Positions 6,720 to 63,346 of a stretch of 64,000 nt of DNA are shown here, one piece after another. Position 1 is the stretch's first letter; every line of letters starts with the position of its first letter. The notes beneath the pieces are model-generated. The model was not told the origin of the DNA. It saw only the letters and a program-made list of their open reading frames with translations, and did not search any database. Origin of the DNA: Thermoprotei archaeon (GTDB lineage Archaea; Thermoproteota; Thermoprotei_A; Sulfolobales; Desulfurococcaceae); assembly GCA_040514375.1 (NCBI GenBank), contig JBEVCI010000010.1, forward strand, positions 27,163 through 91,162, read 5' to 3'. The position numbers were made by a program, and so were the translations under genes.

Positions 6720-7265
6720 GTGATCATAGTGACTACTAGACCTCCCCTAAGATACACTGGCGTGGACCTAGCCTTCCTCGGAGTAGTAGCTATTGTAGCT
6801 GGTATAATATTCTATTCAGCATGGTACGTCTACGACTTCGGCAAGGCCATAGGCGGTATCTATGCTAGTAGAGTACTAGCTTATGGACTGTGGTTTATAG
6901 GTGCACCACTAGCAGCGACACTAATACGAAAACCCGGAGCAGCGTTTCTCGGCGAGTTCTTAGGAGCACTAGTAGAAACTATAGTACCTACTGTTGGTGG
7001 TTTTACAAACTTAATCTATGGTGCTGCACAGGGATTTGCTAGCGAGATAGGGTATATGATACTAGGTTATAGGAGATGGGGTGCAGGAGCAGCAGCACTA
7101 GCTGGTGCATTAGCTGCATTCCCATGTATAGCACTAGACGCAGTACTATTTGCAGAAATATATCCCGCACCAGTAATGCTCGGGTTACTAGTAGCGGCTA
7201 TCATTAGTGGAGCAGTCTATGGAGCAATAGCAGCACTAGTAGTTAAAGGAATAACGCGTAGATAA
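6720..7265 (+). CDS. ECF substrate-capture (S) component-like membrane protein, possibly YkoE-type
   Basis: 181 aa, about 6 TM helices, Gly/Ala-rich, positioned directly after the A and T components. Confidence 0.45.
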   Translation: MIIVTTRPPLRYTGVDLAFLGVVAIVAGIIFYSAWYVYDFGKAIGGIYASRVLAYGLWFIGAPLAATLIRKPGAAFLGEFLGALVETIVPTVGGFTNLIYGAAQGFASEIGYMILGYRRWGAGAAALAGALAAFPCIALDAVLFAEIYPAPVMLGLLVAAIISGAVYGAIAALVVKGITRR

Positions 7266-7560
7266 GGTATTAACTAGACAAACACGGGAATCACTAGAAT
7301 CACTATCTAAGAAGACGCTATTTTCCTAATTCTTCCCGTAGCTATAAGGTCTTTATCGCATATGTTTTTAACTATTACTTGCCCGATCTCTATTGGGCAT
7401 CTACCACGAGATCAGCTGTTACACGCATAATCTCTTCTATACACTTCTTCGGTACGAGTTTACACGTTATGACTGATGTTGCGGGTAAATCACTATTCCT
7501 AGTCTTGATAACAGTCGTTACATATTCGGGTTCAATCACTAAACATCGCTATTTCAAGAG

Positions 7561-8832
7561 CTACTTCTTATACTTAGGGTAGAGTCTTAGCATTAATATC
7601 CATATAACTAATGGTATTATCCATAGCAGTACTATGGAGGTTATCGCGTATCTAGAAGCACTCGATATATCTAGTCCCAGCACTTCATAAAATTCTGCTT
7701 TTAGGAGACCATATAGTGTTGGTCCAATACCCCATCCGAGGTTATTCAGTATATTGAATACCGCGAAAGCTGTTGCTCTATATTCTGGTTCTATTACTTC
7801 GCTAAACACCGAGCTAATATTTGGATAAGCAAATGTCGTGAACATCATACCAGCTAATGCTATTATAGCAGGTAGTAGTAGTGCTCGTAAACTCTCATCA
7901 CCATATGGATAGGGGTATAGTACAAAACCCAGCATAACAACTATGCCTATAGCTACACCAAATATACTAACTTTTACCCTACCCAGGGGATCCCCCTTTC
8001 TAACCCGTCTATCAGCTAATAATCCACCTAGTATATGACCAGCAATAATCGAAAGCGATCCCAGGACTACTATTAATGTAGCGATACCACGGCTCACGCC
8101 CCATGCATCACATATGAAGTTTACAGCATAGCGTGCAATAGCACCCCATGGCATACCCCAGAAGAATATCAGTATATAGAAAGCTATTGCTGGCGGTGTT
8201 AGTGTTGCTCTTAGCGCAGTCCCTATAACGTATTCTCTTCGAGTAATACCTACACCAGCCTTCTCATATGCTCTAGTTAGCGTGAACGATGTTATGAAAG
8301 TCAATAGTATAACTAGCAAACCAAGCGATAGGTAGCCTGTACGCCAGTATATGATCAAACCTATTATTAACCCCACTATGTTGCCTAAAACACTACTAGC
8401 ATAGTATGACGCGTACCCTATACCTCTCCTAGACTCTGGTAGTGTATCAGCTATAGCACCCATAATAGCGGGATAGATACCATGCATACCTATAGCGAAT
8501 AAGGTGAAACCAATAACGAGTATATAGAGATTCGGAGAACCGGAAATTATGAGTAATCCAGCGCCGATCAATAAGCCGGTTATTATTAGCATTTTAACTT
8601 TACCTATTTTATCGGCAAGCATCCCCATTGGAATAGAGAGTATTACTCCGATTACCGCTGGTATCGTTAATAGATAGAAACCTGCAATGGCTTCATAATT
8701 ATAGATCTCGCCTGGTATTACTCCTTCTTCCCACATGGGTTTAACAACGTTTGCATACATATAACTAGCAGAAAAATACGTTAGGATCAGTATAGCTAGA
8801 AATACGAGGTGTCTCATAGAATCACGCCTCAC
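7561..8832 (-). CDS. MFS transporter
   Basis: About 12 TM helices with an MFS loop motif (GMLADKIGKVK). The start overlaps the upstream hydrolase stop (GTGA). Confidence 0.8.
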   Translation of the reverse strand: MRRDSMRHLVFLAILILTYFSASYMYANVVKPMWEEGVIPGEIYNYEAIAGFYLLTIPAVIGVILSIPMGMLADKIGKVKMLIITGLLIGAGLLIISGSPNLYILVIGFTLFAIGMHGIYPAIMGAIADTLPESRRGIGYASYYASSVLGNIVGLIIGLIIYWRTGYLSLGLLVILLTFITSFTLTRAYEKAGVGITRREYVIGTALRATLTPPAIAFYILIFFWGMPWGAIARYAVNFICDAWGVSRGIATLIVVLGSLSIIAGHILGGLLADRRVRKGDPLGRVKVSIFGVAIGIVVMLGFVLYPYPYGDESLRALLLPAIIALAGMMFTTFAYPNISSVFSEVIEPEYRATAFAVFNILNNLGWGIGPTLYGLLKAEFYEVLGLDISSASRYAITSIVLLWIIPLVIWILMLRLYPKYKK

Positions 8833-9731
8833 AAGTGTTTTTGAAGAAAACCAAGTAGTTTCTCCTCGTATTCACTCCGGTAATCCTTCCATGCTCCAAC
8901 ATGTCTTGTTTCAACATACCATGTTTCAACAACAGGAGCATTTTTGCGGAGAACTTCTTCTAGCTTTTTATACTCATCAAGCGATATCAAGTCATCACGT
9001 GTGGGTGCTACTAGCATTACTGGTACATGTACTTTCTCGGCATATTTATACATTACTAGCTCCTCGGGATCGACACCAATCCTCCTCGAGGTAAAGAACA
9101 TTATTAGGGGATATGCCATTCTAAGCAGTAAACCCAGAACTCCAGGTATTCTCATAATCCATCTCTTACCAGAAGATCTCACGTCAACGTATGGGCTATC
9201 AAGTACAATAGCGTCAACACCCGTCTTTGCAGCTGTCATGATAGAAATAGCGCCGCCCATAGAGAAACCGTAAACACCTATTCTCCCATAGCCGTTTCTT
9301 CGTAGAAAATCAACGAGTTCAACGACATCATCTGATTCGCGATAACCAAGTGTTGTGTATTCTCCATCGCTTTCTCCATGACCTCTCATATCAACAACTA
9401 GTACTGTATACCCATTCTTACCTAGAACCTCAAGAGCGGGTTTCATATAGTCTTCATCCCATTTACTAGAGGTATACCCATGGATTAGAACAATTGCTTT
9501 ATCAGTACTACCCTTAACTAGCCATCCTCTTAGAACAATACCCTCTCTAGTCTTATACTCTATACGCTCATAACTCAAGCCCAGATCGCTGGGCGTCCAC
9601 TTACCTATTCTTCGCGGAGGACTAGCTAGTCTACGAGAAGCAGCCAGAGCCAATACTACTAGCACTGCGAAGAATAAAACAATAATTGCAACAACTACCG
9701 CAATAACTAGAAATAACAAGTGTTGTATCAC
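8829..9731 (-). CDS. membrane-anchored alpha/beta hydrolase
   Basis: N-terminal TM helix, an HG oxyanion region (VLIHGY), a GFSMGG nucleophile elbow, and late Asp and His candidates. Confidence 0.8.
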   Translation of the reverse strand: MIQHLLFLVIAVVVAIIVLFFAVLVVLALAASRRLASPPRRIGKWTPSDLGLSYERIEYKTREGIVLRGWLVKGSTDKAIVLIHGYTSSKWDEDYMKPALEVLGKNGYTVLVVDMRGHGESDGEYTTLGYRESDDVVELVDFLRRNGYGRIGVYGFSMGGAISIMTAAKTGVDAIVLDSPYVDVRSSGKRWIMRIPGVLGLLLRMAYPLIMFFTSRRIGVDPEELVMYKYAEKVHVPVMLVAPTRDDLISLDEYKKLEEVLRKNAPVVETWYVETRHVGAWKDYRSEYEEKLLGFLQKHL

Positions 9732-9847
9732 CCATGAGAAGCCAATGAACGCTAAATTATATGTAGAGACAGGTTTCAGATAAATATCCTACTCTTCACT
9801 GTTCATCACGAGTAATTCTCATAGTATTAGCTAGGAGATAGCTAGTT

Positions 9848-10630
9848 CTAAGTAAGTAGTATATCTAGCGATAACATTACTATGAATCCCAGGAAGAATC
9901 CTAATGTAGCGGGGTTGTCATGTCCATGACCATATATTTCTGGTATTAACTCGTGTACAACTACGTAGGTCATAGCACCAGCCGAGAATGCCATAAGGAA
10001 TGGTAATAGTATATAAGTGAGTTCTGGGAGTATGGTTATGAGTATCCATGGTATATAAGCAGCTAATAACTCCGTGAACCCGCTGAAAACACCTATACCG
10101 AGAGACTTGGATCTACTACGGGATACTGTATAATAGGGTAGTGCTACCGCGAAACCCTCTGGTACATCCTGGATTCCGATCGCTAGTGCTGTTGTAAACC
10201 CGAGTAATGTGTTCTCGATAATAGTTACTCCAACAGCCATACCCTCTGGGATATTATGGATTATGATAGCAAATACTGTTAATACCATGCGCTTAAACCT
10301 CTTAAACCCTTCTCGGGGACCCTCGTAACCCTTGATAAAATGCGTATGTGGTAAAAACTCGTTAAGCAAATGAATGACTATTACACCAGCTATAAACCCC
10401 GCGTATACGACGTAAAACATACCAGTCTCTAGTGCTGGTAATAATAGACTAGTAAATGTTGCAACAAGCATAACCCCCGCCGAGAAACCAAGTCCGATAT
10501 CGAGTCCCTTCTCACCAATCCTCTTACCTAAAATAACTGGTACTGCACCAAGTGATGTTAGTAGTGCTGGTATTAGTGATAATACTAGAATCCTCAGCGG
10601 TAAGCTAAGAGAGTCCAGATACTCGATCAT
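9848..10630 (-). CDS. zupT: ZIP-family divalent metal transporter (ZupT-like)
   Basis: HNIPEGMAVG and QDVPEGFAV motifs in an 8-TM protein of 260 aa. Confidence 0.8.
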   Translation of the reverse strand: MIEYLDSLSLPLRILVLSLIPALLTSLGAVPVILGKRIGEKGLDIGLGFSAGVMLVATFTSLLLPALETGMFYVVYAGFIAGVIVIHLLNEFLPHTHFIKGYEGPREGFKRFKRMVLTVFAIIIHNIPEGMAVGVTIIENTLLGFTTALAIGIQDVPEGFAVALPYYTVSRSRSKSLGIGVFSGFTELLAAYIPWILITILPELTYILLPFLMAFSAGAMTYVVVHELIPEIYGHGHDNPATLGFFLGFIVMLSLDILLT

Positions 10631-10718
10631 CTTGGTAAACCCGGCTATGATAGCTTAGCGTGTTAATACTCTATAAGCTACGCGCACGTTATTAAAGACA
10701 TGGTATTAGTTCTGGGAA

Positions 10719-11684
10719 TTGGTGTCTATCTTGACGCAAAGTTATAGGGTTTTATGTAGTGGAAGCATTGATGCAGGAGAAGTTGATCTAGGGCTAGTTC
10801 TTAGTGTCTATAACTTTGGTTTCTGGTTTAATGGAGAAACCGGGGTTTTACAGCTTGATATAGGTGGTAAAATCCTAGCTCTCATTGATAGAAACGGTTC
10901 TTACAAAATATACTCCAGCGGTAACGGTAGTGATTGTAGTATTTACGAGGATGAAATCGAGTACCTGCTTGGAATAAACGAGGATTTGAGTAGTTTCCAT
11001 GAAAGAGGTGCTAGTGATCCATTATTGGGTGCTTTTATTAGGAAGTATCGGGGTTGGAGAGTTAGGTCTACTAGTCTCTGGTGGGCACTAGTTATTGGAG
11101 TATGCCAGCAAAACGCTAGTTTTAGACAGGGCTGGACCACGCTATATAATATCGTTAAGGGATATGGCAAGCGCGTTGTATTAGATGGTTATGAGACATA
11201 CCTAGTACCGACACCGCGTGATATAGTTAATAACCCAGAAGTACTAGTGACTGCGAGAACGGGTTATAGGTATAAGACAATCATTGGTATTGCGGAGTGG
11301 TTTCTGGAAAATCCGGGTGTCGAGGAGAAGCTAGTAGATATGGGTTCTAGGAGTATTGAGGAAGAGTTGAAGAGTATTCGTGGAGTCGGATCATATACTG
11401 CGAGATTAGCGCTAATACTCGGTTTTCGCAGGTATGACTTACCACCTATTGATAGGTGGTTACGCAGAATAGCTAGTACGGTATACGGAGTTGACGAGAA
11501 GAGTGTTGAAGAAGAGTGGACTAGGAGGTGGAATAGGTATAGTGGGCTTGCAGCACTAGCAACTACTATAGCACTTGATGCCGAACCCCTCACAAAAGCT
11601 CTTCAACGCATTAGAGAGAATAGATTATTACCAGAAGATACTGGTAAACCAACACCACTCACGCTGTGGAAATACTATAAGTAG
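10719..11684 (+). CDS. HhH-GPD DNA glycosylase (AlkA/Ogg-like)
   Basis: Helix-hairpin-helix LKSIRGVGSYTARLALILGF, followed by PPIDRWLRRI with the expected catalytic Asp. Confidence 0.7.
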   Translation: MVSILTQSYRVLCSGSIDAGEVDLGLVLSVYNFGFWFNGETGVLQLDIGGKILALIDRNGSYKIYSSGNGSDCSIYEDEIEYLLGINEDLSSFHERGASDPLLGAFIRKYRGWRVRSTSLWWALVIGVCQQNASFRQGWTTLYNIVKGYGKRVVLDGYETYLVPTPRDIVNNPEVLVTARTGYRYKTIIGIAEWFLENPGVEEKLVDMGSRSIEEELKSIRGVGSYTARLALILGFRRYDLPPIDRWLRRIASTVYGVDEKSVEEEWTRRWNRYSGLAALATTIALDAEPLTKALQRIRENRLLPEDTGKPTPLTLWKYYK

Positions 11685-53338: not shown

Positions 53339-54070
53339 TTAGAGAGTTTTTACGAGATATAATATTAGAAGTGTGAGTACTACGAGCTCCGTATATAGTA
53401 GCAAATCTTTCTTCTCAAACCATTTAGTTGTAGTATTAATATTTGAGTATCCGTACAGCATATATGATTCAATTAAACTCTGAGAAGTATGTACTATTAA
53501 AAGTACCAGCGGTATTGCTATGCGATATAGCCTCTTACCCCTATACTTGAGCCTAATAGTAATACTAGATTCAGACAAGTAGTAGAATACTAGTGGTAAT
53601 TGCATAAAAACCATTGAAAATAACTGTGATAGAGTTCTCAGCCCTAGTTTGTTAAAGAAGCTTCTAATCTCGCTAACAGCTAGTAACTGGAAGAAGAGCG
53701 AGAATACGAGAAAGAATACCACAAGCCTAACTGCACCCACAACTATATCCACGGGCTTGGGGCCTGGCAATCCCGTTAAAGTGCTTACAAGGAATATTAG
53801 TGCTCCAAGAACCGTGAATAATAGTACTAGCTTGAGACCCGATACAACACTTCTAAATCCCTTGAAATAAGACGATACCAGTAATGTATAAGCTAGGAGA
53901 AGAACTAGTATACCCGTCTCTACAACCGGATTTGTAGTAGTTAATCTCGTGTATACTAGTAGAGCTAGTACTGTGAGCGGAATTAGTATTCTCAGTAACA
54001 TACCGTGTTCACGGCTTTTTCTAGAAGATGTCAATAGATATGAAAACTCTCTAAGCAAGATCTCCACCAT
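53339..54070 (-). CDS. ECF transporter T component (CbiQ/EcfT-like)
   Basis: 243 aa, multi-TM, overlapping the upstream ATPase gene by 20 nt. Confidence 0.65.
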   Translation of the reverse strand: MVEILLREFSYLLTSSRKSREHGMLLRILIPLTVLALLVYTRLTTTNPVVETGILVLLLAYTLLVSSYFKGFRSVVSGLKLVLLFTVLGALIFLVSTLTGLPGPKPVDIVVGAVRLVVFFLVFSLFFQLLAVSEIRSFFNKLGLRTLSQLFSMVFMQLPLVFYYLSESSITIRLKYRGKRLYRIAIPLVLLIVHTSQSLIESYMLYGYSNINTTTKWFEKKDLLLYTELVVLTLLILYLVKTL

Positions 54071-55487
54071 ACAAGCTCTTATAAATCTCGGCGATCTCGA
54101 CTATACTTGTCGAATCCACTACCTCGAGTTCGTATAAAACACCGTTTTCTAGCAAGTACTTCTTGTCCCATATACCCATAGTAGCTGGTTCAACCCAGCT
54201 AGAAGATACGATTACCGATGCTTTAGATGATGCTATCTTATTCAATAGCTCTACACGATCATGGTAGCTTATACCCGAGAAGGGCTCATCTACGAGTATA
54301 ATATCCGCTCCAGATACTAGTGCGAGTTCTAGTGCGAGTTTAATCATTTGTCCATGACTAAGTGTAAACGGAGAATCACGGGGATCTATGCCATAGCTTT
54401 TAGCCCGCTTCAGTCCATCCTCAATACACTCCTTACCCTTGCCTCTACTCTTACACAGTTCTATAACTTCACGCTCTACAGTATCCTCTGTATAGAAGAG
54501 CAGAACATTCTGCGGCACATAGATCACATCACCATGCTTTTTAACAAAGCCTCTATCTGGTTTCAGGTAGCCAGACAGGATCTTTAGGAGAGTCGTTTTA
54601 CCAGAACCATTAGCGCCGTAAATAAACACTTTATCGCCGTACCCGATAGTAATGGATACTCCATTAAGTACTCTCTTATCGCTATAGCTAAAGTATATAC
54701 TTCTTGCAAACACTACGTAGTCTCTACCCTCACTAATCGGTGAAGAGGGCTTAGTTCGTATACTGGCTTCACGATAACGTGGAAACTTCTTTCTAAGATT
54801 AGGTGCTATCTCTACTAATTTACCATTACATAATAGGAAAACTCTATCAACCCGATCTACTAGGGGTAGAAACCTGTGCTCGAATATAATTACTGTTTTA
54901 CCCAGTCTCCGTAGAATGTGCAGTACCGCGATAATATCTCTAACACCGTATTCGTCTAGCCACATGAGGGGCTCGTCGAATAACAGGATTTCAGGGTCTC
55001 CTATAAGGGCTTTAGCTACTAATACTCGCTTTGCTTCTCCACCAGATAATTCAAAGAAGTACTTATCGAGTAGCCTATGTATTGAAAAAGCTTCTACGAC
55101 TTTTGATAGAGCTCTATGCGCCTTGTCTTTATCACCATATATGCTTAGTGCATAGTTATATAAGTCGTCGTAGACGAGCATTTCGGTAAAATATAGGTAG
55201 GGGTTTTGACCAATAACATGGATTCTTCGTGGAAGCTCTGTTAGTGAGTACTCTTCAATATTCTTCCCGAGAACGCGTATGACGCCTTTAAGCTCACCAC
55301 CATAAATCGGGATTGCTATACCAGATAATATTCTACAAAGAGTTGTTTTACCAGAACCAGTTTCTCCAATGACTAGTACTTGCTCACCCCGTTCTATGGA
55401 GAGGTCTACTCCACGGATGATCCAGTCTCTATTCGGATACCTATAGTATAGATTGTTAACCTCTAGTGCTTTGTAAATACTGTTCAT
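54051..55487 (-). CDS. ECF/ABC ATP-binding protein, fused double ATPase
   Basis: Walker A GETGSGKT and GANGSGKT, signatures LSGGEAKR and LSHGQMIK, Walker B LLFDEPL and ILVDEPF. Confidence 0.85.
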   Translation of the reverse strand: MNSIYKALEVNNLYYRYPNRDWIIRGVDLSIERGEQVLVIGETGSGKTTLCRILSGIAIPIYGGELKGVIRVLGKNIEEYSLTELPRRIHVIGQNPYLYFTEMLVYDDLYNYALSIYGDKDKAHRALSKVVEAFSIHRLLDKYFFELSGGEAKRVLVAKALIGDPEILLFDEPLMWLDEYGVRDIIAVLHILRRLGKTVIIFEHRFLPLVDRVDRVFLLCNGKLVEIAPNLRKKFPRYREASIRTKPSSPISEGRDYVVFARSIYFSYSDKRVLNGVSITIGYGDKVFIYGANGSGKTTLLKILSGYLKPDRGFVKKHGDVIYVPQNVLLFYTEDTVEREVIELCKSRGKGKECIEDGLKRAKSYGIDPRDSPFTLSHGQMIKLALELALVSGADIILVDEPFSGISYHDRVELLNKIASSKASVIVSSSWVEPATMGIWDKKYLLENGVLYELEVVDSTSIVEIAEIYKSLYGGDLA

Positions 55488-56065
55488 CCTATAATGTACC
55501 CTGTTCTCTTGAGTACTGCTATACTCGCTAAAGCTACTGGACCTATTATAATTACTATTGTTGCATTAAATATTGTTATGTGTGGTATATAGAATAATAA
55601 GTAACTATAAGCCTCGTTAAGAGACTTGGCCCATCCAGCCCATAGTAGCCAGTAGGGTGTTATAACATAGTTTGCTAGAAGCATTACTAATACACGTGAT
55701 ACAGCCGCTAAACCAATCGAGATACCAGCCGCTATAGCGGGTTTTCGCTTCATTAGTTTCTTGTACGCTATTACTAGTGGTGTAAAGGTTGAGAACTCGG
55801 CTAAAACCTTCATAGCCATGCCGATAGGGTCTGAGGCTAGTAGAGTTGTTGAAACGAGATAGTATACCGGTAGCGATATGTAGGCGTATTTCAGCGATAT
55901 GTAGGCTATTACTATTAGTGGTACACCTGATAGATCGTATTTCAGGAAAGGAGCTGGTGGATAAGGTATTTCGAAAAACCTAAGTATTATAGCAAGAGCT
56001 ATGAGACCAGACACTAATAGGAGATCCTTAAGCCTACGAACCTCACTAATAGAGCTACTTGACAA
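55484..56065 (-). CDS. ECF transporter S component-like membrane protein
   Basis: 193 aa, 6 TM helices, 4-nt overlap with the ATPase gene. Confidence 0.55.
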   Translation of the reverse strand: MSSSSISEVRRLKDLLLVSGLIALAIILRFFEIPYPPAPFLKYDLSGVPLIVIAYISLKYAYISLPVYYLVSTTLLASDPIGMAMKVLAEFSTFTPLVIAYKKLMKRKPAIAAGISIGLAAVSRVLVMLLANYVITPYWLLWAGWAKSLNEAYSYLLFYIPHITIFNATIVIIIGPVALASIAVLKRTGYIIG

Positions 56066-56152
56066 ATCTATTTCCCTCTCTTCCTATTAACTTACTTCAT
56101 GTATAGATACGCGTGAAGTTAATATAGTTAAGTACTCCAAGGGGGTAGCGAG

Positions 56153-57397
56153 CTAAGATAATGTATGTAGTACTATGTCTACTTCATCTCCCTTCTCAAA
56201 ACCCTCGTTATCCTCCGGTATTACTAGATAGCCATTTGTTTTAACGAGACTAGATAATACTCCACTACCTCTCAGCATATAGGGTTCTGCATAGTAATTA
56301 CCGTTTTCTCTCCATACACGTACACGGATATAGCTACGATACCCTATTACATTAGGTGTTCTACGCGTTAATACTGCTCTAATAGTAGGCTTTACTGGGG
56401 GGTTTAAGCCCATTAGCCTATACAGTATTGGAGTAACTAGTGCCTCGAGACCTGTCCACGCAGCAACAGGGAACCCGGATAAGAGAAATACTGGTTTATT
56501 ATCTACCAGTGCTAAGCTAGTTGGACGACCCGGCCTCATAGCAACACCGCGGAAAACCCATGTACCGTGCTTTTCGACAACATCTTGTATAACGTCTTGT
56601 CCACTAATACCAGCACCACCAGTAACCACTACTACGTGGTGATCCTCTATAAGCCTTAGTAGAACATTCTCGAGAATACTTTTCTTATCGGGATAAACCC
56701 CGTAGTAAAGGGGTTTAGCAAAAGGTATCTCCTCCAGATAGTTTTTAACTAGTACACCAGTAGAGTTGTAGAGTTTTCCAGCTACACGTCTATAGCCCGG
56801 TTCTACAACTTCATCGCCTGTTGTGAATATAGCTATTCTTATCTTCTCGTATACTTTCACTTTATCGACACCGGTGCTAGCAATAATGCCGAGATGCCAG
56901 GGACGAAGCAGTGTATTCTTACTGACAAGTACTTCTCCTTTAGTATAATCCTCTCCACGACGCGAGACATTAGCATATGGTGCTACTTGCCTGTAGATAT
57001 CAACGTATTCCCCATCTCTACTAGTATCCTCTGCCATAACAACAGCGTTTGCACCACGCGGTAACGGAGCACCAGTAGATACTTCAACAGCTTCTCCGTG
57101 ACCAATACTATGCTTATTGGGAGTATCGCCGGGCCTTAATATACCAACAACCCTTAGTCTTACCGGATTTAATGGTGATGCTCCATACGTATCCTCGGCA
57201 ATAACAGCGTACCCATCAACAGCAGAGCGATCGTATTCGGGGTGATCAAAACCGGCAATAATGTCCTCGGCTAATACATGTCCACAAGCACTCCACACAC
57301 TCTCTTCTACAACCCCTAGCTCGAGCCCTCCTAGCATATTAACAGCTTTCTCAATAGCTTCATCCACACTAACTAGTTCACCAAGAAACCTATACAA
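56153..57397 (-). CDS. moeA: molybdopterin molybdotransferase MoeA
   Basis: 414 aa. SAVDGYAV, a central MoCF-biosynthesis domain (VVVTGGAGISGQD) and a C-terminal beta-barrel. Confidence 0.85.
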   Translation of the reverse strand: MYRFLGELVSVDEAIEKAVNMLGGLELGVVEESVWSACGHVLAEDIIAGFDHPEYDRSAVDGYAVIAEDTYGASPLNPVRLRVVGILRPGDTPNKHSIGHGEAVEVSTGAPLPRGANAVVMAEDTSRDGEYVDIYRQVAPYANVSRRGEDYTKGEVLVSKNTLLRPWHLGIIASTGVDKVKVYEKIRIAIFTTGDEVVEPGYRRVAGKLYNSTGVLVKNYLEEIPFAKPLYYGVYPDKKSILENVLLRLIEDHHVVVVTGGAGISGQDVIQDVVEKHGTWVFRGVAMRPGRPTSLALVDNKPVFLLSGFPVAAWTGLEALVTPILYRLMGLNPPVKPTIRAVLTRRTPNVIGYRSYIRVRVWRENGNYYAEPYMLRGSGVLSSLVKTNGYLVIPEDNEGFEKGDEVDIVLHTLS

Positions 57398-57574
57398 TCA
57401 ACTACACCCCACTACCAGAAAACCCTATAAACACTCCATCTCCCGAGTTATTACGTAATTAATCACAACGTATAGAATGTGTTAAAGCTACTAAAATAAT
57501 AACTTGTTAGAGCCGGGAGAGGAATAGCGAATTATAGGGTTTTACGAGAATAGCTCAAGTATGGTGCTAATAGA

Positions 57575-57976
57575 ATGGTTTTAGTAAAAGCATGTGTAAA
57601 AATACGTGGTTTTAGGAAAGAGTATTCTACTAAATCAGCACTCGTAGATACCGGGACACGTATAACAGTACTCGATGAAACCAAGGCCGAGGAAATTGGC
57701 GTAGAATATACTGGGAGAGAGCTTGGTCTTATCTCTATATCAGGACATAGAGTTAAAGCAAGAGAAGCAATTGTTAATGAACTAGTTATTGAGGATGAAA
57801 CGCTAAAATACGAGGCATTAGCAGTAGCCAAGATACCAGATAATGTAAAACGTGTACTATCCTCGAACAATCTAGATACCAATATTATAATAGGCTTACT
57901 TACTCTTGAAAGAGCCAACTTAGTACCAGATACTACTAGAGGCTACCTAAGAAAAGCTGAGGGATTTATACTATAA
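57575..57976 (+). CDS. retropepsin-like clan AA aspartic protease (archaeal AF_0612-type)
   Basis: 133 aa with ALVDTGT (the D-T-G active-site motif) and IIIGLLTLE (flap/dimer region). Confidence 0.65.
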   Translation: MVLVKACVKIRGFRKEYSTKSALVDTGTRITVLDETKAEEIGVEYTGRELGLISISGHRVKAREAIVNELVIEDETLKYEALAVAKIPDNVKRVLSSNNLDTNIIIGLLTLERANLVPDTTRGYLRKAEGFIL

Positions 57977-58080
57977 GTGCGCGGCGTATTACGTATTTCC
58001 TACGAGTATCACAAAGTTGTTCCACGTAGTCGTGACACTTCTATATTTTATCTAGGACTATCACAATCACTACTGAATAG

Positions 58081-58857
58081 GTGTTGTGTTTGCGTTATGA
58101 ACTATACATTATGACCGCGCTACTATTTGTAATACTAGCTTCGTTAACTAGTGTCTCGAATAATTCCGGGTATGTACACGGTATTGTTTCTCTCCTCATA
58201 TGCGGAGATCTATACTGTGATGTGGATGCTTTAAGAGAATTATTCAGTGGTATAAAGTTCTATTGGTTCAAAGACAGAGAGCTAATTCCTACTATACCTC
58301 GTGACAACTATATTGGTTTATTCGAACTACGAGATGCTATAGAAGCATATGTTGCTATAGGTAGAGTATCGAGAAATAATACACGCTGTTTATTTATCGA
58401 GCTAATAGCTCGGGATCCCGACGTATCCGAGGAAGAGCTGTATACGCTACTACTACGAGTATACAGTGTATTAGTTACTAAACAGGTTGTACAGCCTCTC
58501 ACAGCCCTCATGTATAGTAATATAAAAATATACTGGAAACCTCTATCAAGCATAATGGAGTTACCTTATTACGAAGATGAGCTAGATAGGCTAGATCTCT
58601 ATACGTGGTCTTTTGAAGCACTAGGAAAACCTCTCTCATATGGAGCTGAGAGAGCATTGCAATCAACGGCAACGTCTATAAAAAGTAGTGGGGCTCGCAT
58701 TTACTCTATTGAAGCCGTGTATAATAACGTGACAGAAGCTAGTAATCTCGCACTAGCGTCCACTAGTAGTAGGCTTATCTATGTACTCATAGGATTCGTA
58801 GCGGCAACTATATCATCTATCATAGCTTATATTGTTATACGAATACATCGTGATTGA
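58081..58857 (+). CDS. bitopic surface protein (N-terminal signal/anchor, C-terminal TM), function unknown
   Basis: N-terminal hydrophobic MTALLFVILASLTSV and a C-terminal TM LIYVLIGFVAATISSIIAYIVI, followed by RIHRD. Confidence 0.5.
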   Translation: MLCLRYELYIMTALLFVILASLTSVSNNSGYVHGIVSLLICGDLYCDVDALRELFSGIKFYWFKDRELIPTIPRDNYIGLFELRDAIEAYVAIGRVSRNNTRCLFIELIARDPDVSEEELYTLLLRVYSVLVTKQVVQPLTALMYSNIKIYWKPLSSIMELPYYEDELDRLDLYTWSFEALGKPLSYGAERALQSTATSIKSSGARIYSIEAVYNNVTEASNLALASTSSRLIYVLIGFVAATISSIIAYIVIRIHRD

Positions 58858-59251
58858 TAAGGAGATACTAAGGTATTACATCGAGCTACGTAGTCGTGAA
58901 CAACCACTTGGTGTACGCGAAGTTCAGAGAATACTAGGTTTCAATAGCCCGGGTAAAGCACATAGACTTCTAAAGAAACTCGTTAGATATGGGCTTGCAG
59001 AGAGATTACCGGGTGGTAAATACCGTATCATCCCGGATCCCCCTCCAGAGCTTATCGGTAAAATAATTATCCGGGGCCGAGTTTTACCTAAGATACTAGT
59101 TATAGGAGTCTATGTAACAGTTTTAACAACAACATATATACTATTAGCAAATCCCCCAATAGACGTCATACTATTACTCATACTCGTTAATACCCCCATA
59201 TGGATCGAGGCTTTAAACGAGTATAGAGAGTTAAAGCGTAAACTAGCTTAG
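58832..59251 (+). CDS. membrane-tethered winged-helix DNA-binding protein
   Basis: wHTH LGVREVQRILGFNSPGKAHRLLKKLVRYGLAE followed by two TM helices. The TTG 58832 or GTG 58850 start overlaps the upstream stop. Confidence 0.5.
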   Translation: MLYEYIVIDKEILRYYIELRSREQPLGVREVQRILGFNSPGKAHRLLKKLVRYGLAERLPGGKYRIIPDPPPELIGKIIIRGRVLPKILVIGVYVTVLTTTYILLANPPIDVILLLILVNTPIWIEALNEYRELKRKLA

Positions 59252-59310
59252 ATAACCGTTGGTTAAACCCTATCAACAGTATTTGTCACGGAATCCTTGA
59301 CATGATACAC

Positions 59311-59318
59311 TATATAAG
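59311..59318 (+). promoter_or_regulatory. TATA-box candidate for the serpin gene
   Basis: TATATAAG lies about 45-52 nt upstream of ATG 59363, which is itself preceded by GAGGTGGAG. This argues against the ORF-track start at 59324. Confidence 0.4.
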
Positions 59319-59362
59319 AACCGGTGATGAAAAGCGTATTTGGTTTGGTAGAGGTGGAGTTA

Positions 59363-60658
59363 ATGAATAAAACACTCGCAATAGCACTAATAGCGACTAT
59401 TACAGTTGTAACCGCTATACTAGCTACTAATATTGCGTTTCTAATACCCATTAACCAGAGTAGCCTAGAAAACACTAATACGTATACGAGCCCAGTTAAA
59501 CCACCATATAGTGATCCGAGGTATTGCCACAACTGGTTAGGCATAGAAGTACTCAAGCGCTTGTTTAATGAAAGAGAGGAGAATACTATTGTATCGCCTC
59601 TGTCAATATACTCTGCTCTAGCAATGGTTTACGAAGCCTCTACTGATGAATCACGGGAGATACTTGCTTCGCTACTATGTGCTAATAATGGGTTAGGAGA
59701 GTTCTACTGGGAAAACATAGCAGAGCTCGAAAATAAGAGTAAACCAGCAGTACTAGATATCTCTAACTCTATATGGGTCGACTCAGAGCTATACAAATAC
59801 GTGCTCGAGAACTACACAGACTACGTTACTAGGTATTATGATGCAGAGATAACGAGTATTCCGCTTGGAAACGATCCAAGAATTTTACGCGAGTCGTTTA
59901 AGATCATAAATAAGTGGGTTGAAAACAGAACTAGAGGGCTGATCGATAAGATCATCCCGGATGATTACATACCCGAAAACCCTCTAGCGGCAATATTCAT
60001 TAACACTGTTTACCTCAAAGCTAACTGGACTATAGGATTTATAGAATACGGTGAAAAACCCTTCTACACATTAGATGGAGTTATTAACGTGACTATGATC
60101 GGATATGATAACATGGAAATAGCAAAAGCAGTACTCTACAACTGGTTTAAAGTAGTTAAAATACCGCTAAAAACACCCGAGCTATCCTACATAATACTAG
60201 TTCCAGATAAACCCGAGGATATCTATAGGCTCATAGACTCTCTAGATCCCCGTTTACTCGAAGACATACTCGCTGATCTAGAGAAAAGAGGACAAGACGT
60301 GACTAAGTTGTTAATGCCAAAACTAGACCTTGATACCGGGATATACTCGCTCAAAGAAATACTAAGCGATATGGGTGCTAAGTCCCTATTCGAGTACATT
60401 GCTCTCTGGAGAATGTTTGATAAAGAAGAGTTCCTCAGAGTTGCGGGCCCTACTTACATAGATGACGTGTTTCACAGAGTTAGGTTTAGAGCTGATACAA
60501 GCGGTATAGAAGCAGCTGCAGCCACTGCTGTAACTATAGTATATACAGCGCTTATCGAGGGATTAGAAATAACTATTGATAAGCCCTTCGTATTCCTAGT
60601 AACTAGTAGTAATGGATTAGTAATCTTTATTGGAGTAGTGGTTAACCCGCTAGGCTAG
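59363..60658 (+). CDS. serpin-family protease inhibitor with an N-terminal membrane anchor
   Basis: IVSPLSIYSALAMVYEAS (serpin N-terminal block), the hinge/reactive-centre loop SGIEAAAATAVTIVYTALIEG, then KPFVFLV and NPL at the C-terminus. N-terminal TM LAIALIATITVVTAILATNIAFLI. Confidence 0.85.
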   Translation: MNKTLAIALIATITVVTAILATNIAFLIPINQSSLENTNTYTSPVKPPYSDPRYCHNWLGIEVLKRLFNEREENTIVSPLSIYSALAMVYEASTDESREILASLLCANNGLGEFYWENIAELENKSKPAVLDISNSIWVDSELYKYVLENYTDYVTRYYDAEITSIPLGNDPRILRESFKIINKWVENRTRGLIDKIIPDDYIPENPLAAIFINTVYLKANWTIGFIEYGEKPFYTLDGVINVTMIGYDNMEIAKAVLYNWFKVVKIPLKTPELSYIILVPDKPEDIYRLIDSLDPRLLEDILADLEKRGQDVTKLLMPKLDLDTGIYSLKEILSDMGAKSLFEYIALWRMFDKEEFLRVAGPTYIDDVFHRVRFRADTSGIEAAAATAVTIVYTALIEGLEITIDKPFVFLVTSSNGLVIFIGVVVNPLG

Positions 60659-60701
60659 CTATAGAAATAGAAAGACACGTTAGTGTTTCTTGCTATATGT
60701 G

Positions 60702-62405
60702 TTAAGATGATAGGTTTGCTTTTCTAAAAACAAGCCATCCTAGTGTATATGGTATTGCTATCCACGACGCTGTAGATACTCCTGCTAGAACGGGGTTAAA
60801 TACCGAGTCGAAAACCTCGATTATCTGTGGCGATAGTATTTCGAGTTGTTTCTGCACATAGTATTGCATTAAGTTGAATATACCATCTGGTTTGAAGTAG
60901 TATGAGACTAGCTGTATCTTGAAATACCGCTCGAAGAAGCCAGGGCCTATACCGCCAATGAGGAATGCTACTAGTGATACTATTAATTGGAAGAACATTA
61001 CGAATACGAAGAACAACAGTATTGATACGACTAAATACCTAGTACCACTAGTAAGGGCTGAGAAGAAGTAGAATAGGGAATAGAAAGCTACTAGTGATAA
61101 TAGTGATCCCATGAAAAGTAGTAGATAGTTGTTCGGGTCTAGCATTATGCCTAGTAATGAGTAGTTTGATGCGTATAGCGAGGCGTAAAATACCGTTGTT
61201 AACACTATAGCAACGAGTACTCCAGCTAAGAACCTAGTATTGTATAGTTCAAACCTAGTTATTGGACGTGCAAGTACGAATTCTAGAGCGCCCTGAGACC
61301 GGGGTTTAGCTATATACACGTACGCGAGATACAGTAGCACTATTGGAGAGAACGTTGCGAATAAGCTGGGCCCGATACTAATCAGAACCGGGAATACTTG
61401 TCTCTCGACCTGTGATCCCTTTGTAACGTATGGGATTCCTTGGAAGACAATATATGACTTGTCATCACTCGAAGAGTCTAGGAGTAGTACGTAGAGATCC
61501 TTAGTTTTAAGCTCTTCTAGGTCGCCAGTATAGTTGATGCTCTTTGTTAACATGTTTACTCCTTCGTAGATCCTACCAATATATACGAAGTACTCTCCTA
61601 GCTCATTAACTCCTATTTTAGCCGGTAAGGTAGAGCTATTGATACTCGGATTGAGAACGTATACGTCATACCCCGTTCTATTAATGCTGAAGAAAGAAGC
61701 TATAACTACTAGTTCTAATTCGCTAGTATTTTCTTTCGGTATCTTAGCACACACTGCTAGGGCATGTATTTCGTCACGTGGATGAGTAAGATGTACATAT
61801 GAACCTGCTTCATCGGGTTTCAAAACCACGGTGTCATTAACTACGCGATAGTATAGTATTGGGAAAGAACTGGGTATACCAAAAATGTGGGCTTGAGCAT
61901 AGATCGCCTTGTTAGCACTAACTAGTTGCAAATAACCCGCTCTATAGCCAGACATTCCAAAAGCCGTGGTTATCGTGATATCGAGCATGTATTGTGCTTC
62001 TTCACCACTAGGTAGTGATTTATCAACTCTCTCCACCTTGGCTCCTTTCCCGTCAGGCCCGATTTCAAGTACTCCACTAATAATTACTTCCTCCTCTCCA
62101 GAAGAACGTACTATTTTCCCGGAATCCGTTTCAACGACTACCTGTTTAATATAGCTTATCTCATAACTTATTGCTCCCCTTACAGGCCTTAGATCAGAGT
62201 CTAGGAGAAGCACTTCTATACCATATTCCTGTTCCTCGGGATCTACATAGGAGTAGACAGCAGTTATACCGCCTCCCGGTCTCGTCATTAGAGTAGCTCC
62301 TATGAGATAAGATGACCCAATACCAGCTAATACGAATATAGCTAGTGCTATCAATGCCGCTGGTCTTAGGAATCCTCTTTTAAAATCGTAGAGAACCGGG
62401 TTCAC
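60702..62405 (-). CDS. ABC-2-type permease with a large (~330 aa) extracytoplasmic domain
   Basis: One N-terminal TM, a long soluble segment, then 5-6 C-terminal TM helices. 4-nt overlap with the upstream ATPase gene. Confidence 0.65.
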   Translation of the reverse strand: MNPVLYDFKRGFLRPAALIALAIFVLAGIGSSYLIGATLMTRPGGGITAVYSYVDPEEQEYGIEVLLLDSDLRPVRGAISYEISYIKQVVVETDSGKIVRSSGEEEVIISGVLEIGPDGKGAKVERVDKSLPSGEEAQYMLDITITTAFGMSGYRAGYLQLVSANKAIYAQAHIFGIPSSFPILYYRVVNDTVVLKPDEAGSYVHLTHPRDEIHALAVCAKIPKENTSELELVVIASFFSINRTGYDVYVLNPSINSSTLPAKIGVNELGEYFVYIGRIYEGVNMLTKSINYTGDLEELKTKDLYVLLLDSSSDDKSYIVFQGIPYVTKGSQVERQVFPVLISIGPSLFATFSPIVLLYLAYVYIAKPRSQGALEFVLARPITRFELYNTRFLAGVLVAIVLTTVFYASLYASNYSLLGIMLDPNNYLLLFMGSLLSLVAFYSLFYFFSALTSGTRYLVVSILLFFVFVMFFQLIVSLVAFLIGGIGPGFFERYFKIQLVSYYFKPDGIFNLMQYYVQKQLEILSPQIIEVFDSVFNPVLAGVSTASWIAIPYTLGWLVFRKANLSS

Positions 62406-63346
62406 TTAATACCAGCCTCCGCCTTTTTTATTAATTCAAAGAAAAAGTTTTCTAAACTCCTCTCCTCTCTCTTAACTTCGCCTACACGAACTCCTATCTT
62501 AACAAGCTCAGCGATAAGGTCTTCGGCCTCGATACCGGGATTCCTTAGAATAACTCTATTCTTTTCTCCTATAACCGGTTCACCGTATCTACCCAAGAGC
62601 TTTAGCACACTATCGTTTACAGGGTTAACGCTTAGTATTATGGCTGGTTTAGCCATACTCTTGATCTCCTCCATAGTATAAGAACCAATAATTCTGCCTC
62701 TGTGTATGAATACTACTCTATCGGCTATACCCTCGACTTCGCTTAGAATATGTGATGAGAAAAGCACGGATCTACCCTCTCTCTTAAATTCTCTAACGAG
62801 TTCTCTGAAAAACGCTATACCGCTAGGATCTAGTCCGTTGAGAACCTCATCAAATAACAGGTTCGGGGGCTCTGATATCATTGATACAGCTAGTGCAAAC
62901 CTCTTCTTCATACCCAGTGAGTACTCGGACAGCTTCTTATACAGCGCATCTCCTAAGCCAAACCTCTCGAGCAGCTCCCTACCTATTCTCTTAGCTTCAC
63001 TACTCGGTATTCCATAGTAGCCAGCAAGGTAAACAAAGTAGTCAAGCGCTCTAAACTCGGATTCAAAAATAGGTAGTTCAGGAACCCAACCAACTAGTTT
63101 CGAAGCCTCTTTCTTTCTACGCGTAATCGAGAATCCATCAATATACACGTCTCCCGAATCCGGTACTAGTACTCCAGCAATAATCCTAATAGTAGTTGTT
63201 TTACCAGCACCATTTAATCCAACATATCCTACAACCTCGCTCTCATCAACTTTAAAAGAAACACTATCAAGCGCTTTTACTTTCCCAAACCTCTTCGAAA
63301 TCCCTACAACCTCTATTACCACGAAGAAACACCAAATACGTATCAT
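62402..63346 (-). CDS. ABC transporter ATP-binding protein (ABC-2/CcmA-like)
   Basis: Walker A GLNGAGKTT, signature LSLGMKKR-like (YSLGMKKR), Walker B LLFDEVL. The likely true start is GTG at 63322 (VVIEVVGISKRFG). Confidence 0.85.
   Translation of the reverse strand: MIRIWCFFVVIEVVGISKRFGKVKALDSVSFKVDESEVVGYVGLNGAGKTTTIRIIAGVLVPDSGDVYIDGFSITRRKKEASKLVGWVPELPIFESEFRALDYFVYLAGYYGIPSSEAKRIGRELLERFGLGDALYKKLSEYSLGMKKRFALAVSMISEPPNLLFDEVLNGLDPSGIAFFRELVREFKREGRSVLFSSHILSEVEGIADRVVFIHRGRIIGSYTMEEIKSMAKPAIILSVNPVNDSVLKLLGRYGEPVIGEKNRVILRNPGIEAEDLIAELVKIGVRVGEVKREERSLENFFFELIKKAEAGIK

Follow-up and report, generated by a model that had tools for sequence, protein, structure and literature searches.

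The 64,000-nucleotide (nt) stretch of DNA analyzed here (the window) belongs to a metagenome-assembled genome (MAG) of the archaeal family Desulfurococcaceae, which totals 1.46 Mb and is labeled G000 in our genome set. Between positions 57575 and 63346 of the window lie six open reading frames (ORFs) whose products are a DTG aspartic protease, a bitopic surface protein of 258 amino acids (aa), a winged helix-turn-helix (wHTH) protein with two transmembrane helices, a serpin, and the permease and ATPase of an ABC-2 transporter. An initial annotation of this DNA had read the first four, or all six, of these genes as a module for regulated-proteolysis signaling at the cell envelope. Our comparative analysis favors a different arrangement, wherein the sole conserved functional unit appears to be a two-gene cassette (58081-59251) coding for the bitopic surface protein and the two-helix wHTH protein. 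We consider the chances about even that, in this genome, the wHTH protein is a membrane-tethered regulator that controls transcription of the serpin gene, and that neither the DTG protease nor the ABC-2 pair is connected with it.

The evidence for such control centers on a perfect inverted repeat with 5-nt arms, located at 59284-59302. This site begins 33 nt after the stop codon of the wHTH gene and ends 8 nt before the TATA box of the serpin gene, and the chance expectation of a strict site in the 300 nt beside the wHTH gene is approximately 0.002. The same palindrome stands just upstream of the cassette promoter in most Desulfurococcales, which implies that the regulator commonly controls its own expression. 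The features of the locus are as follows.

57575-57976, + strand: DTG protease, 133 aa (Asp_protease_2)
58042-58049, + strand: TATA-like box TATATTTT, ~30 nt upstream of the 258-aa gene (sequence reading)
58081-58857, + strand: 258-aa bitopic surface protein, no family; partner position of the cassette
58850-59251, + strand: wHTH protein with membrane hairpin, 133 aa (139 aa if from TTG 58832)
59284-59302, no strand: perfect inverted repeat TGTCA-N9-TGACA, TGTCACGGAATCCTTGACA; candidate operator of the tethered regulator
59311-59318, + strand: serpin TATA box TATATAAG (sequence reading)
59363-60658, + strand: serpin, 431 aa (ORF open from 59324, 444 aa)
60702-62405, - strand: ABC-2 permease, 567 aa (ABC2_membrane_2)
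62402-63346, - strand: ABC ATPase, 314 aa (ABC_tran)

Conservation of genes and gene order

Gene content, conservation patterns, and motif distribution were read directly from the genomes, with gene counts taken among 41 genomes of the same family and order (Desulfurococcaceae and its order). The wHTH gene is carried by 34 of these genomes, the ABC-2 permease gene by 26, the serpin gene by 8 (24 of 301 genomes in the class; best identity 34%), and the DTG protease gene by 3, with one protease copy bearing stop codons. The permease gene is distributed independently of the serpin gene and is never next to one. No genome besides this one carries the protease and the serpin together.

ORF maps of 20 loci place none of the window's other genes beside a wHTH ortholog, except moeA. 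In the closest relatives, moeA lies divergently upstream of the cassette with no protease gene between them; specifically, the protease gene is missing from this position in loci L021, L023, and L024. At the equivalent locus of a genome from the same genus, the protease, 258-aa, serpin, and ABC-2 genes are all absent, a truncated wHTH gene adjoins moeA, and the genes that follow have their counterparts on other contigs of the window's genome. This locus (L028 of genome G001, positions 3-770) retains only wHTH residues 52-137, abutting the moeA start; it lacks the protease gene, the 258-aa gene, and the initial third of the regulator, owing either to a deletion or to an artifact of MAG assembly. 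Clustering of the genes around 22 serpin loci likewise revealed no shared neighbor: PIN, DUF234/ATPase_2, MacB/FtsX with CARDB, HAD, NikR, and GlnA proteins were encountered, none of them consistently.

Thus, by the synteny yardstick that the initial annotation had itself named, every junction of the four- or six-gene module breaks in relatives except the one between the 258-aa and wHTH genes, and the region appears to be a mosaic rather than a single module. Because the six-gene adjacency is not conserved, we give it no weight beyond chance, with the 258-aa/wHTH pair excepted. The same annotation had allowed that the linkage might be coincidental; this caution was warranted for the adjacency seen in this genome, but not for that pair, which stays together.

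The surface partner of the cassette

In every Desulfurococcales locus examined, a partner gene precedes the two-helix wHTH gene on the same strand with a gap of 2-48 nt. The partner ORFs span 226-461 aa and share an architecture composed of an N-terminal hydrophobic segment, an ectodomain, a Ser/Thr-rich stalk, a C-terminal transmembrane helix, and a short basic tail. The 258-aa protein has the same architecture and position, with hydrophobic segments at residues 1-27 and 223-256. Partner proteins diverge very fast, and two partner subfamilies are homologous to each other (hhalign 97.7%).

Sequence comparison places the 258-aa protein less readily. It has no Pfam or NCBIfam match, a word-based search returned only the protein itself (across searches covering 5.8e9 clusters and 1.84e9 representatives), and an exhaustive HMMER search gave three weak partial matches to long proteins. 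Comparison with the partner family by hhalign matched the transmembrane anchor alone (37%), the best pairwise local alignment of its ectodomain with partners reached z = 4.1 on a Y.V.IG motif, and the hidden Markov model (HMM) of the partner family scored it at -1.0, a value equaled or exceeded by 261 of 1000 shuffles. A single-sequence AlphaFold2 (AF2) model of the 258-aa protein was set aside at a predicted local distance difference test (pLDDT) score of 39; for the partner of the closest relative, a model built from 11 sequences reached 60 overall and 72-85 in the ectodomain. The two models, of low and moderate confidence, respectively, share an order of secondary structure elements that may hint at kinship. 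A Foldseek search of the PDB with the relative's model returned YwmB alone, at an uninformative template-modeling score of 0.27-0.34.

The cassette can also occur in tandem. Locus L035 (genome G002, 6977-11044) encodes a 256-aa partner with a 145-aa wHTH protein, a 386-aa protein with multiple transmembrane helices, and a 385-aa partner with a 137-aa wHTH protein. The wHTH family duplicates locally, and several genomes carry 2-4 copies. The partner at locus L182 (3853-4938) has a precomputed match to PF27854 (Heavy_Cys_CGP), a recent Pfam family that may already cover one partner subfamily.

A candidate minimal tethered regulator

Pfam and NCBIfam models were scanned against the six ORF products. 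The window's wHTH protein matches HTH_IclR at 21.7 bits (cut-off 22) and LexA_DNA_bind at 19.6 bits (cut-off 23.7), with both scores falling below threshold. A homolog from Bathyarchaeia reaches 26.4 bits with LexA_DNA_bind, above the 23.7 cut-off, and the family profile matches the ArsR structure 6j0e (E-value 0.016). In an alignment of 15 homologs, the N-terminal domain is conserved and is accompanied by an SPGK motif, a basic stretch, and two adjacent transmembrane helices. The predicted wHTH domain occupies approximately the first 75 residues, and the helices begin near residue 81 and are joined by an external loop of about six residues that contains Pro. Both termini would therefore be cytoplasmic, and no exposed part of the protein would be able to sense.

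With its transmembrane region in the same polypeptide as the predicted wHTH domain, as is characteristic of the class, this protein can be regarded as a candidate minimal transmembrane transcription regulator (TTR) for which we predict DNA binding. TTRs are widespread (PMC10269533).

More distant homologs exhibit a related arrangement. In Bathyarchaeia and other phyla, a 148-aa two-helix wHTH gene is followed by a gene for a secreted Beta_propel protein; the Bathyarchaeia version of the latter (PF09826) is a secreted protein of ~670 aa, encoded ~75 nt after the wHTH gene. The common rule would seem to be that a tethered wHTH protein is paired with an extracytoplasmic protein.

A palindrome upstream of cassette promoters

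The palindrome was first noticed by reading the regions upstream of the cassettes. We define the strict motif as TGTC-N10/11-GACA (eight bases specified), which is usually TGTCA-N9-TGACA, and the loose motif as permitting one arm variant; complete site sets cover eight genomes. Strict sites precede 8 of 17 cassettes and loose sites precede 13 of the 17. All eight strict copies found within 163 kb of the relatives' loci fall in the 4.2 kb of upstream sequence, and their spacers are unrelated. Genome-wide, the strict motif has 2-35 copies per genome and is often depleted relative to a reversed control. In genome G020, one of five copies sits 90 nt before the cassette, and L182, an additional independent cassette locus, carries the palindrome as well.

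The position of the palindrome is also regular. It usually ends 7-10 nt before a TATA-like element, with a second class at 18-23 nt, and thus lies upstream of the transcription factor B recognition element (BRE), as do the boxes bound by ArnR (discussed below). Bathyarchaeia homologs have a different palindrome, AGAACA-N3-5-TGTTCT, in the same promoter-proximal position, as expected if an operator co-evolves with the DNA-binding domain that reads it. At loci L085-L107 it is found ~14 nt upstream of a CTTATAT box, at about -60 to -30 from the wHTH start. In this group, a near-invariant element, TGTCACTAAACTTYGACA, is also present 0.2-2.3 kb upstream of the wHTH gene at L088, L090, L091, L094, L098, L100, and L102; its distance is variable, and a conserved gene or RNA of the neighborhood probably contains it.

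The palindrome at serpin and peptidase genes

The window's genome carries nine strict copies, seven within genes and two between them. Chance alone supplies ~1.4 intergenic strict copies per genome, and therefore a count of two proves nothing. The location of one copy beside the regulator gene, however, is unlikely to be due to chance, and the geometry that it shares with other promoters appears to add to the case. The second intergenic copy (contig C49, 56914-56932) lies 9-10 nt before the TATA box of a gene for a surface-anchored C25 cysteine peptidase (53508-56864, - strand), an 1118-aa protein with a signal peptide, Propeptide_C25 and Peptidase_C25 domains (E-value 9e-42 for the peptidase), and a C-terminal anchor. 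This peptidase also has a Filamin-like repeat and a coiled coil, its anchor is a C-terminal transmembrane helix, and AHGDG and VACIN stand at the positions expected for the catalytic His and Cys. A spacing of 7-10 nt between site and TATA box recurs at the serpin gene, at three C25 promoters, and at several cassettes. The cassette promoter of the window itself has a half-site only.

A serpin gene in a second genus, from a different family (genome G110), provides a parallel. It has a strict site at -55, the sole strict one among 20 serpin homologs, and its promoter shares the arrangement GTCA-N5-AGTAGGTAC-TATAAA with cassette promoters of its genus and of L182; G110 carries the regulator gene on another contig. 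Overall, two strict sites lie within 150 nt upstream of approximately 21 serpin genes, against an expectation of ~0.03-0.04. The 15 kb around the G110 serpin gene (L113) contains three strict palindromes, and none occurs in ~214 kb of other serpin loci. Its neighbors there encode a MacB/FtsX permease, a CARDB protein, and an ABC ATPase.

Among C25 orthologs, a loose site is found at -64 in G003 and a one-mismatch site at -75 in G016. Furthermore, five unassigned genes are preceded by strict sites in relatives, and all five products have a signal or anchor, including one with the full partner-type architecture. The predicted targets thus appear to be lineage-specific and biased toward surface proteins.

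Two broader readings of the motif were rejected. A regulon drawn from seven genomes with low copy numbers was discarded, as cytoplasmic enzymes are encoded downstream of half of the intergenic sites, which probably arose by chance. The rule that a site is present wherever the regulator is present fails in G130, which has the regulator and a C25 peptidase but no site. As a separate matter, an identical 18-nt palindrome, TGTCTAAAGCAATTGACA, occurs three times in G016 (contig C23 at 3249 and 3404, and contig C170 at 5); the two copies 155 nt apart lie immediately ahead of a SIS-domain gene and within its start, and the palindrome looks like a short repeated element rather than a chance match.

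Features of the serpin

The serpin matches Pfam PF00079 over model positions 6-370 of 370 (E-value 2.1e-60, 205 bits), and its entire fold, hinge included, can be aligned with those of antithrombin and conserpin. The hinge sequence, GIEAAAAT, compares with GSEAAAST in antithrombin and GTEAAAAT in relatives, and has the small P12-P9 residues and uncharged P14 residue of inhibitory serpins, a combination that permits insertion of the loop. The predicted P2, P1, and P1' residues are Tyr, Thr, and Ala, encoded at about 60503-60550. Residues 1-31 form an N-terminal transmembrane segment, and such an anchor is common to 19 of 20 homologs in the class; the strict hinge pattern is present in 18 of these homologs and close variants in the other 2. 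On this basis, the protein is predicted to be an N-terminally anchored or secreted serpin of the inhibitory type. No close relatives were found in metagenome contigs.

Candidate targets in the genome are two S8 subtilases, of which the one 429 aa in length is not found together with the serpin in relatives. The subtilase within the window, which the initial annotation had named as a possible partner of the serpin, was set aside after orthologs were located in nine relatives, none of which has a serpin.

A possible mechanism and its alternatives

Since the regulator has no sensor domain of its own, it is likely that the partner senses: its ectodomain would respond to an envelope condition, and its C-terminal helix may contact the hairpin of the regulator through helix-helix interactions in the membrane. 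The tethered wHTH domain would then bind, as a dimer, to the palindrome upstream of the BRE and TATA box. The regulator would control its own operon in most relatives. In the lineage of the window, the cassette promoter would have lost its site, and the regulator would control the serpin gene and probably the C25 peptidase gene as well. Partner and regulator may be translationally coupled, and we speculate that coupled transcription, translation, and membrane insertion could bring target loci within reach of the tethered factor; the predicted targets are all secreted or anchored proteins. DNA binding, the operator assignment, the direction of regulation, and the coupling of regulator to partner are features that we infer from the patterns described above.

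Several points weigh against this proposal. The wHTH assignment of the window protein is based on sub-threshold matches, and homology between the 258-aa protein and the partner family is unproven. A site is missing ahead of the cassette in the window, in its closest relatives L071 and L076, and at one further cassette, L035b, and therefore autoregulation is not universal. Ten intergenic copies away from cassettes occur in seven genomes, several of them before cytoplasmic enzymes, and two per genome is about the number expected by chance. Among serpin homologs, 18 of 20 have no site, and neither do most C25 orthologs, including that of G130, which has the regulator. Finally, another transcription factor could bind the palindrome.

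Some of these points lead to an alternative in which the cassette alone is functional, and the serpin adjacency and promoter palindrome are a coincidence or belong to another regulator, such that nothing links the wHTH protein to a protease or its inhibitor. We regard this as possible but doubtful. The patchy occurrence of serpin genes (8 of 41 genomes; 24 of 301 in the class) in variable neighborhoods, the 18 site-free homologs, and the ease with which a motif of eight specified bases arises between genes (~1.4 copies per genome) are all in its favor, yet it must also accommodate a site with perfect 5-nt arms that begins within 35 nt of the regulator stop codon, where ~0.002 are expected, at the 8-nt distance from a TATA box that is typical of cassettes. 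It must further treat as accidents the motif and cassette-type promoter segment on a serpin gene of a second genus, and the two strict sites before ~21 serpin genes where only ~0.03-0.04 are expected.

It is improbable, in our judgment, that the two-helix wHTH protein is not a regulator at all and instead takes part in a structural or protective envelope complex, such as a DNA-membrane tether or a surface-protein chaperone, with the palindrome serving another factor. The DNA-binding domain is indeed weakly detected, the partners evolve as fast as surface antigens, and the fold search with the partner model gave no informative analog. Nevertheless, wHTH signatures recur in the family, one homolog exceeds the Pfam cut-off, and in two phyla the promoter-proximal palindromes change along with the family, as is typically seen for DNA-binding proteins that regulate their own genes.

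The module proposed originally, in which DTG protease-linked proteolysis would release or destroy the regulator and the serpin would modulate the process among four or six co-acting genes, seems to us very unlikely. Its genes do share a strand and are separated by short gaps, and the regulated proteolysis of tethered regulators is well established in bacteria. However, the DTG protease occurs in 3 of 41 genomes, in none of them next to the cassette or a serpin, the 258-aa and serpin genes each have a TATA-like box of their own, the same-genus locus has neither the protease, 258-aa, and serpin genes nor the ABC-2 genes, and the ABC-2 pair is convergent and independently conserved. The compartments also disagree, in that the protease is soluble and cytoplasmic and the serpin is extracytoplasmic. 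To our knowledge, serpins act on serine proteases and some cysteine proteases, but not on aspartic proteases. No site-2 protease or rhomboid is encoded nearby, and the regulator exhibits no sign of processing. Thus, the suggested tie between a tethered regulator and envelope proteolysis survives in altered form: the palindromes on the serpin and C25 peptidase promoters lend partial support to such a tie, with transcriptional control rather than regulated proteolysis as its means.

Control of the serpin gene by the tethered regulator could be given a more specific form, which we consider a long shot. The cassette might be a protease-sensing switch in which the partner, exposed, rapidly diverging, and equipped with a Ser/Thr-rich stalk, serves as bait for extracellular proteases; its cleavage or unfolding would be relayed through the membrane helices to the wHTH protein, which would turn on the serpin gene and adjust expression of the C25 peptidase. 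If true, this switch would constitute a feedback loop protecting the archaeal envelope, operated by a regulator family with no described member.

Gene starts, promoters, and neighboring genes

All six ORFs were found at the coordinates and on the strands originally assigned to them, as was the 43-nt gap between the stop codons of the serpin and permease genes. Hydropathy analysis bears out the topologies proposed at that time, with the DTG protease and the ATPase being soluble and the others membrane-associated. The reported overlap between the wHTH start and the preceding stop codon is real as well, but 8 nt is likelier than 26 nt. Specifically, GTG 58850, rather than 58832, is more likely to be the start, yielding the overlap GTGATTGA with the 258-aa gene, because orthologs begin with M-I/T-D-K/R-E and the database copy is 133 aa long. 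The serpin probably starts at ATG 59363, because a GAGGTGGAG element just precedes this codon and the TATATAAG box lies upstream of 59324. This box is ~45 nt before the ATG and upstream of GTG 59324, which begins the longer ORF. The TATATTTT box at 58042-58049 is the probable promoter element of the two-gene cassette and differs little from the TATA element, TATATTTTATC, found at the C25 peptidase gene. The operon structure proposed here is deduced from TATA and SD elements.

The 133-aa protease matches Asp_protease_2 (E-value 3.7e-7; 31.2 bits against a cut-off of 24.3), carries the motifs ALVDTGT and IIIGLLTLE, and has no transmembrane segment. Its catalytic motif and above-threshold model match are those of clan AA retropepsin-like proteases (PF13650). 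Homologs retain the DTG motif but reside in unrelated contexts, none beside a wHTH gene or a serpin gene. Only in this lineage does the gene for this soluble clan AA enzyme separate moeA from the cassette, as an insertion. An antisense ORF of 128 aa (57532-57918, - strand) lies wholly inside the protease gene; its product is Ser/Leu-rich with no family match, and it is most likely a shadow ORF.

The permease matches ABC2_membrane_2 (E-value 2e-16) and has a large extracytoplasmic domain. The ATPase matches ABC_tran (E-value 9e-23), with its matches to DrrA/GldA-like NCBIfam models all falling below their cut-offs. Their genes overlap by 4 nt, and the pair has the features of an ABC-2 type exporter. 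The transporter is widespread, and convergence is all that connects it with the serpin gene; both it and the DTG protease are unrelated neighbors that can be dropped from the model.

Implications

These findings define a widespread regulator family that has no match in the libraries searched, and that comes with a conserved partner and a candidate operator; as such, it appears to be uncharacterized. Its predicted targets are concrete, namely the serpin, the C25 peptidase, and several secreted proteins, and the family bears on the question of how a tethered regulator that lacks a sensor receives its signal. If the operator assignment is correct, a prokaryotic serpin would for the first time be placed in a regulatory context, and the physiological roles of such serpins are little understood; if it fails, the locus reduces to a conserved pair set in an ordinary mosaic of accessory genes. 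We know of no described promoter palindrome that links a prokaryotic serpin to a tethered regulator.

Comparison with known systems

The serpin resembles the characterized archaeal serpins aeropin, Pnserpin, and Tk-serpin in its inhibitory-type alanine-rich hinge, its full fold, and its hyperthermophile origin, but differs in having Ile rather than Thr at P14 and a predicted Thr at P1 (PMC5297747). Serine proteases of the chymotrypsin or subtilisin type are the expected targets in both cases (PMC5297747).

The locus, with a tethered transcription factor near protease-related genes, calls to mind regulated intramembrane proteolysis. For the tethered regulators that are governed in this manner, RseA and the protease RseP provide an example. 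Unlike that system, this locus encodes no site-1 or site-2 protease, and the adjacent protease is a soluble retropepsin-like enzyme that is not conserved with the regulator.

Archaea are known to possess many membrane-tethered transcription factors, of which only a handful have been investigated, with ArnR being the main crenarchaeal example. ArnR and ArnR1 of Sulfolobus acidocaldarius are membrane-bound, one-component activators of the archaellum that bind inverted repeats upstream of the BRE and TATA box (PMC6396743). Judged by layout alone, ArnR is similar to the protein described here, as both are crenarchaeal, have two C-terminal transmembrane helices, and have or are predicted to have an N-terminal HTH domain and cell-surface targets (PMC6396743). 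However, ArnR carries HAMP-like and sensor domains between its HTH domain and its transmembrane helices, for which a protein of ~135 aa has no room and of which none was detected; we therefore do not place the two-helix wHTH protein in the ArnR family, although it would act in a similar manner. The ArnR boxes (TCGAC-N5-GTCGA; PMC6396743) also differ from the TGTC-N10/11-GACA motif, and ArnR has no co-transcribed bitopic partner such as the one present in the cassette.

In this last respect, there is a parallel with the ToxR/ToxS and TcpP/TcpH systems of Vibrio (PMC10269533). ToxR and TcpP each have a single transmembrane helix and a periplasmic domain of their own, with the partner gene downstream. 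The cassette, in contrast, encodes a hairpin with no external domain, places the partner gene upstream, and is an archaeal system whose wHTH domain belongs to a different subfamily. Yet in each case a tethered wHTH protein and a bitopic extracytoplasmic partner, which may modulate that protein, are encoded together in a two-gene operon; the resemblance is an analogy only.

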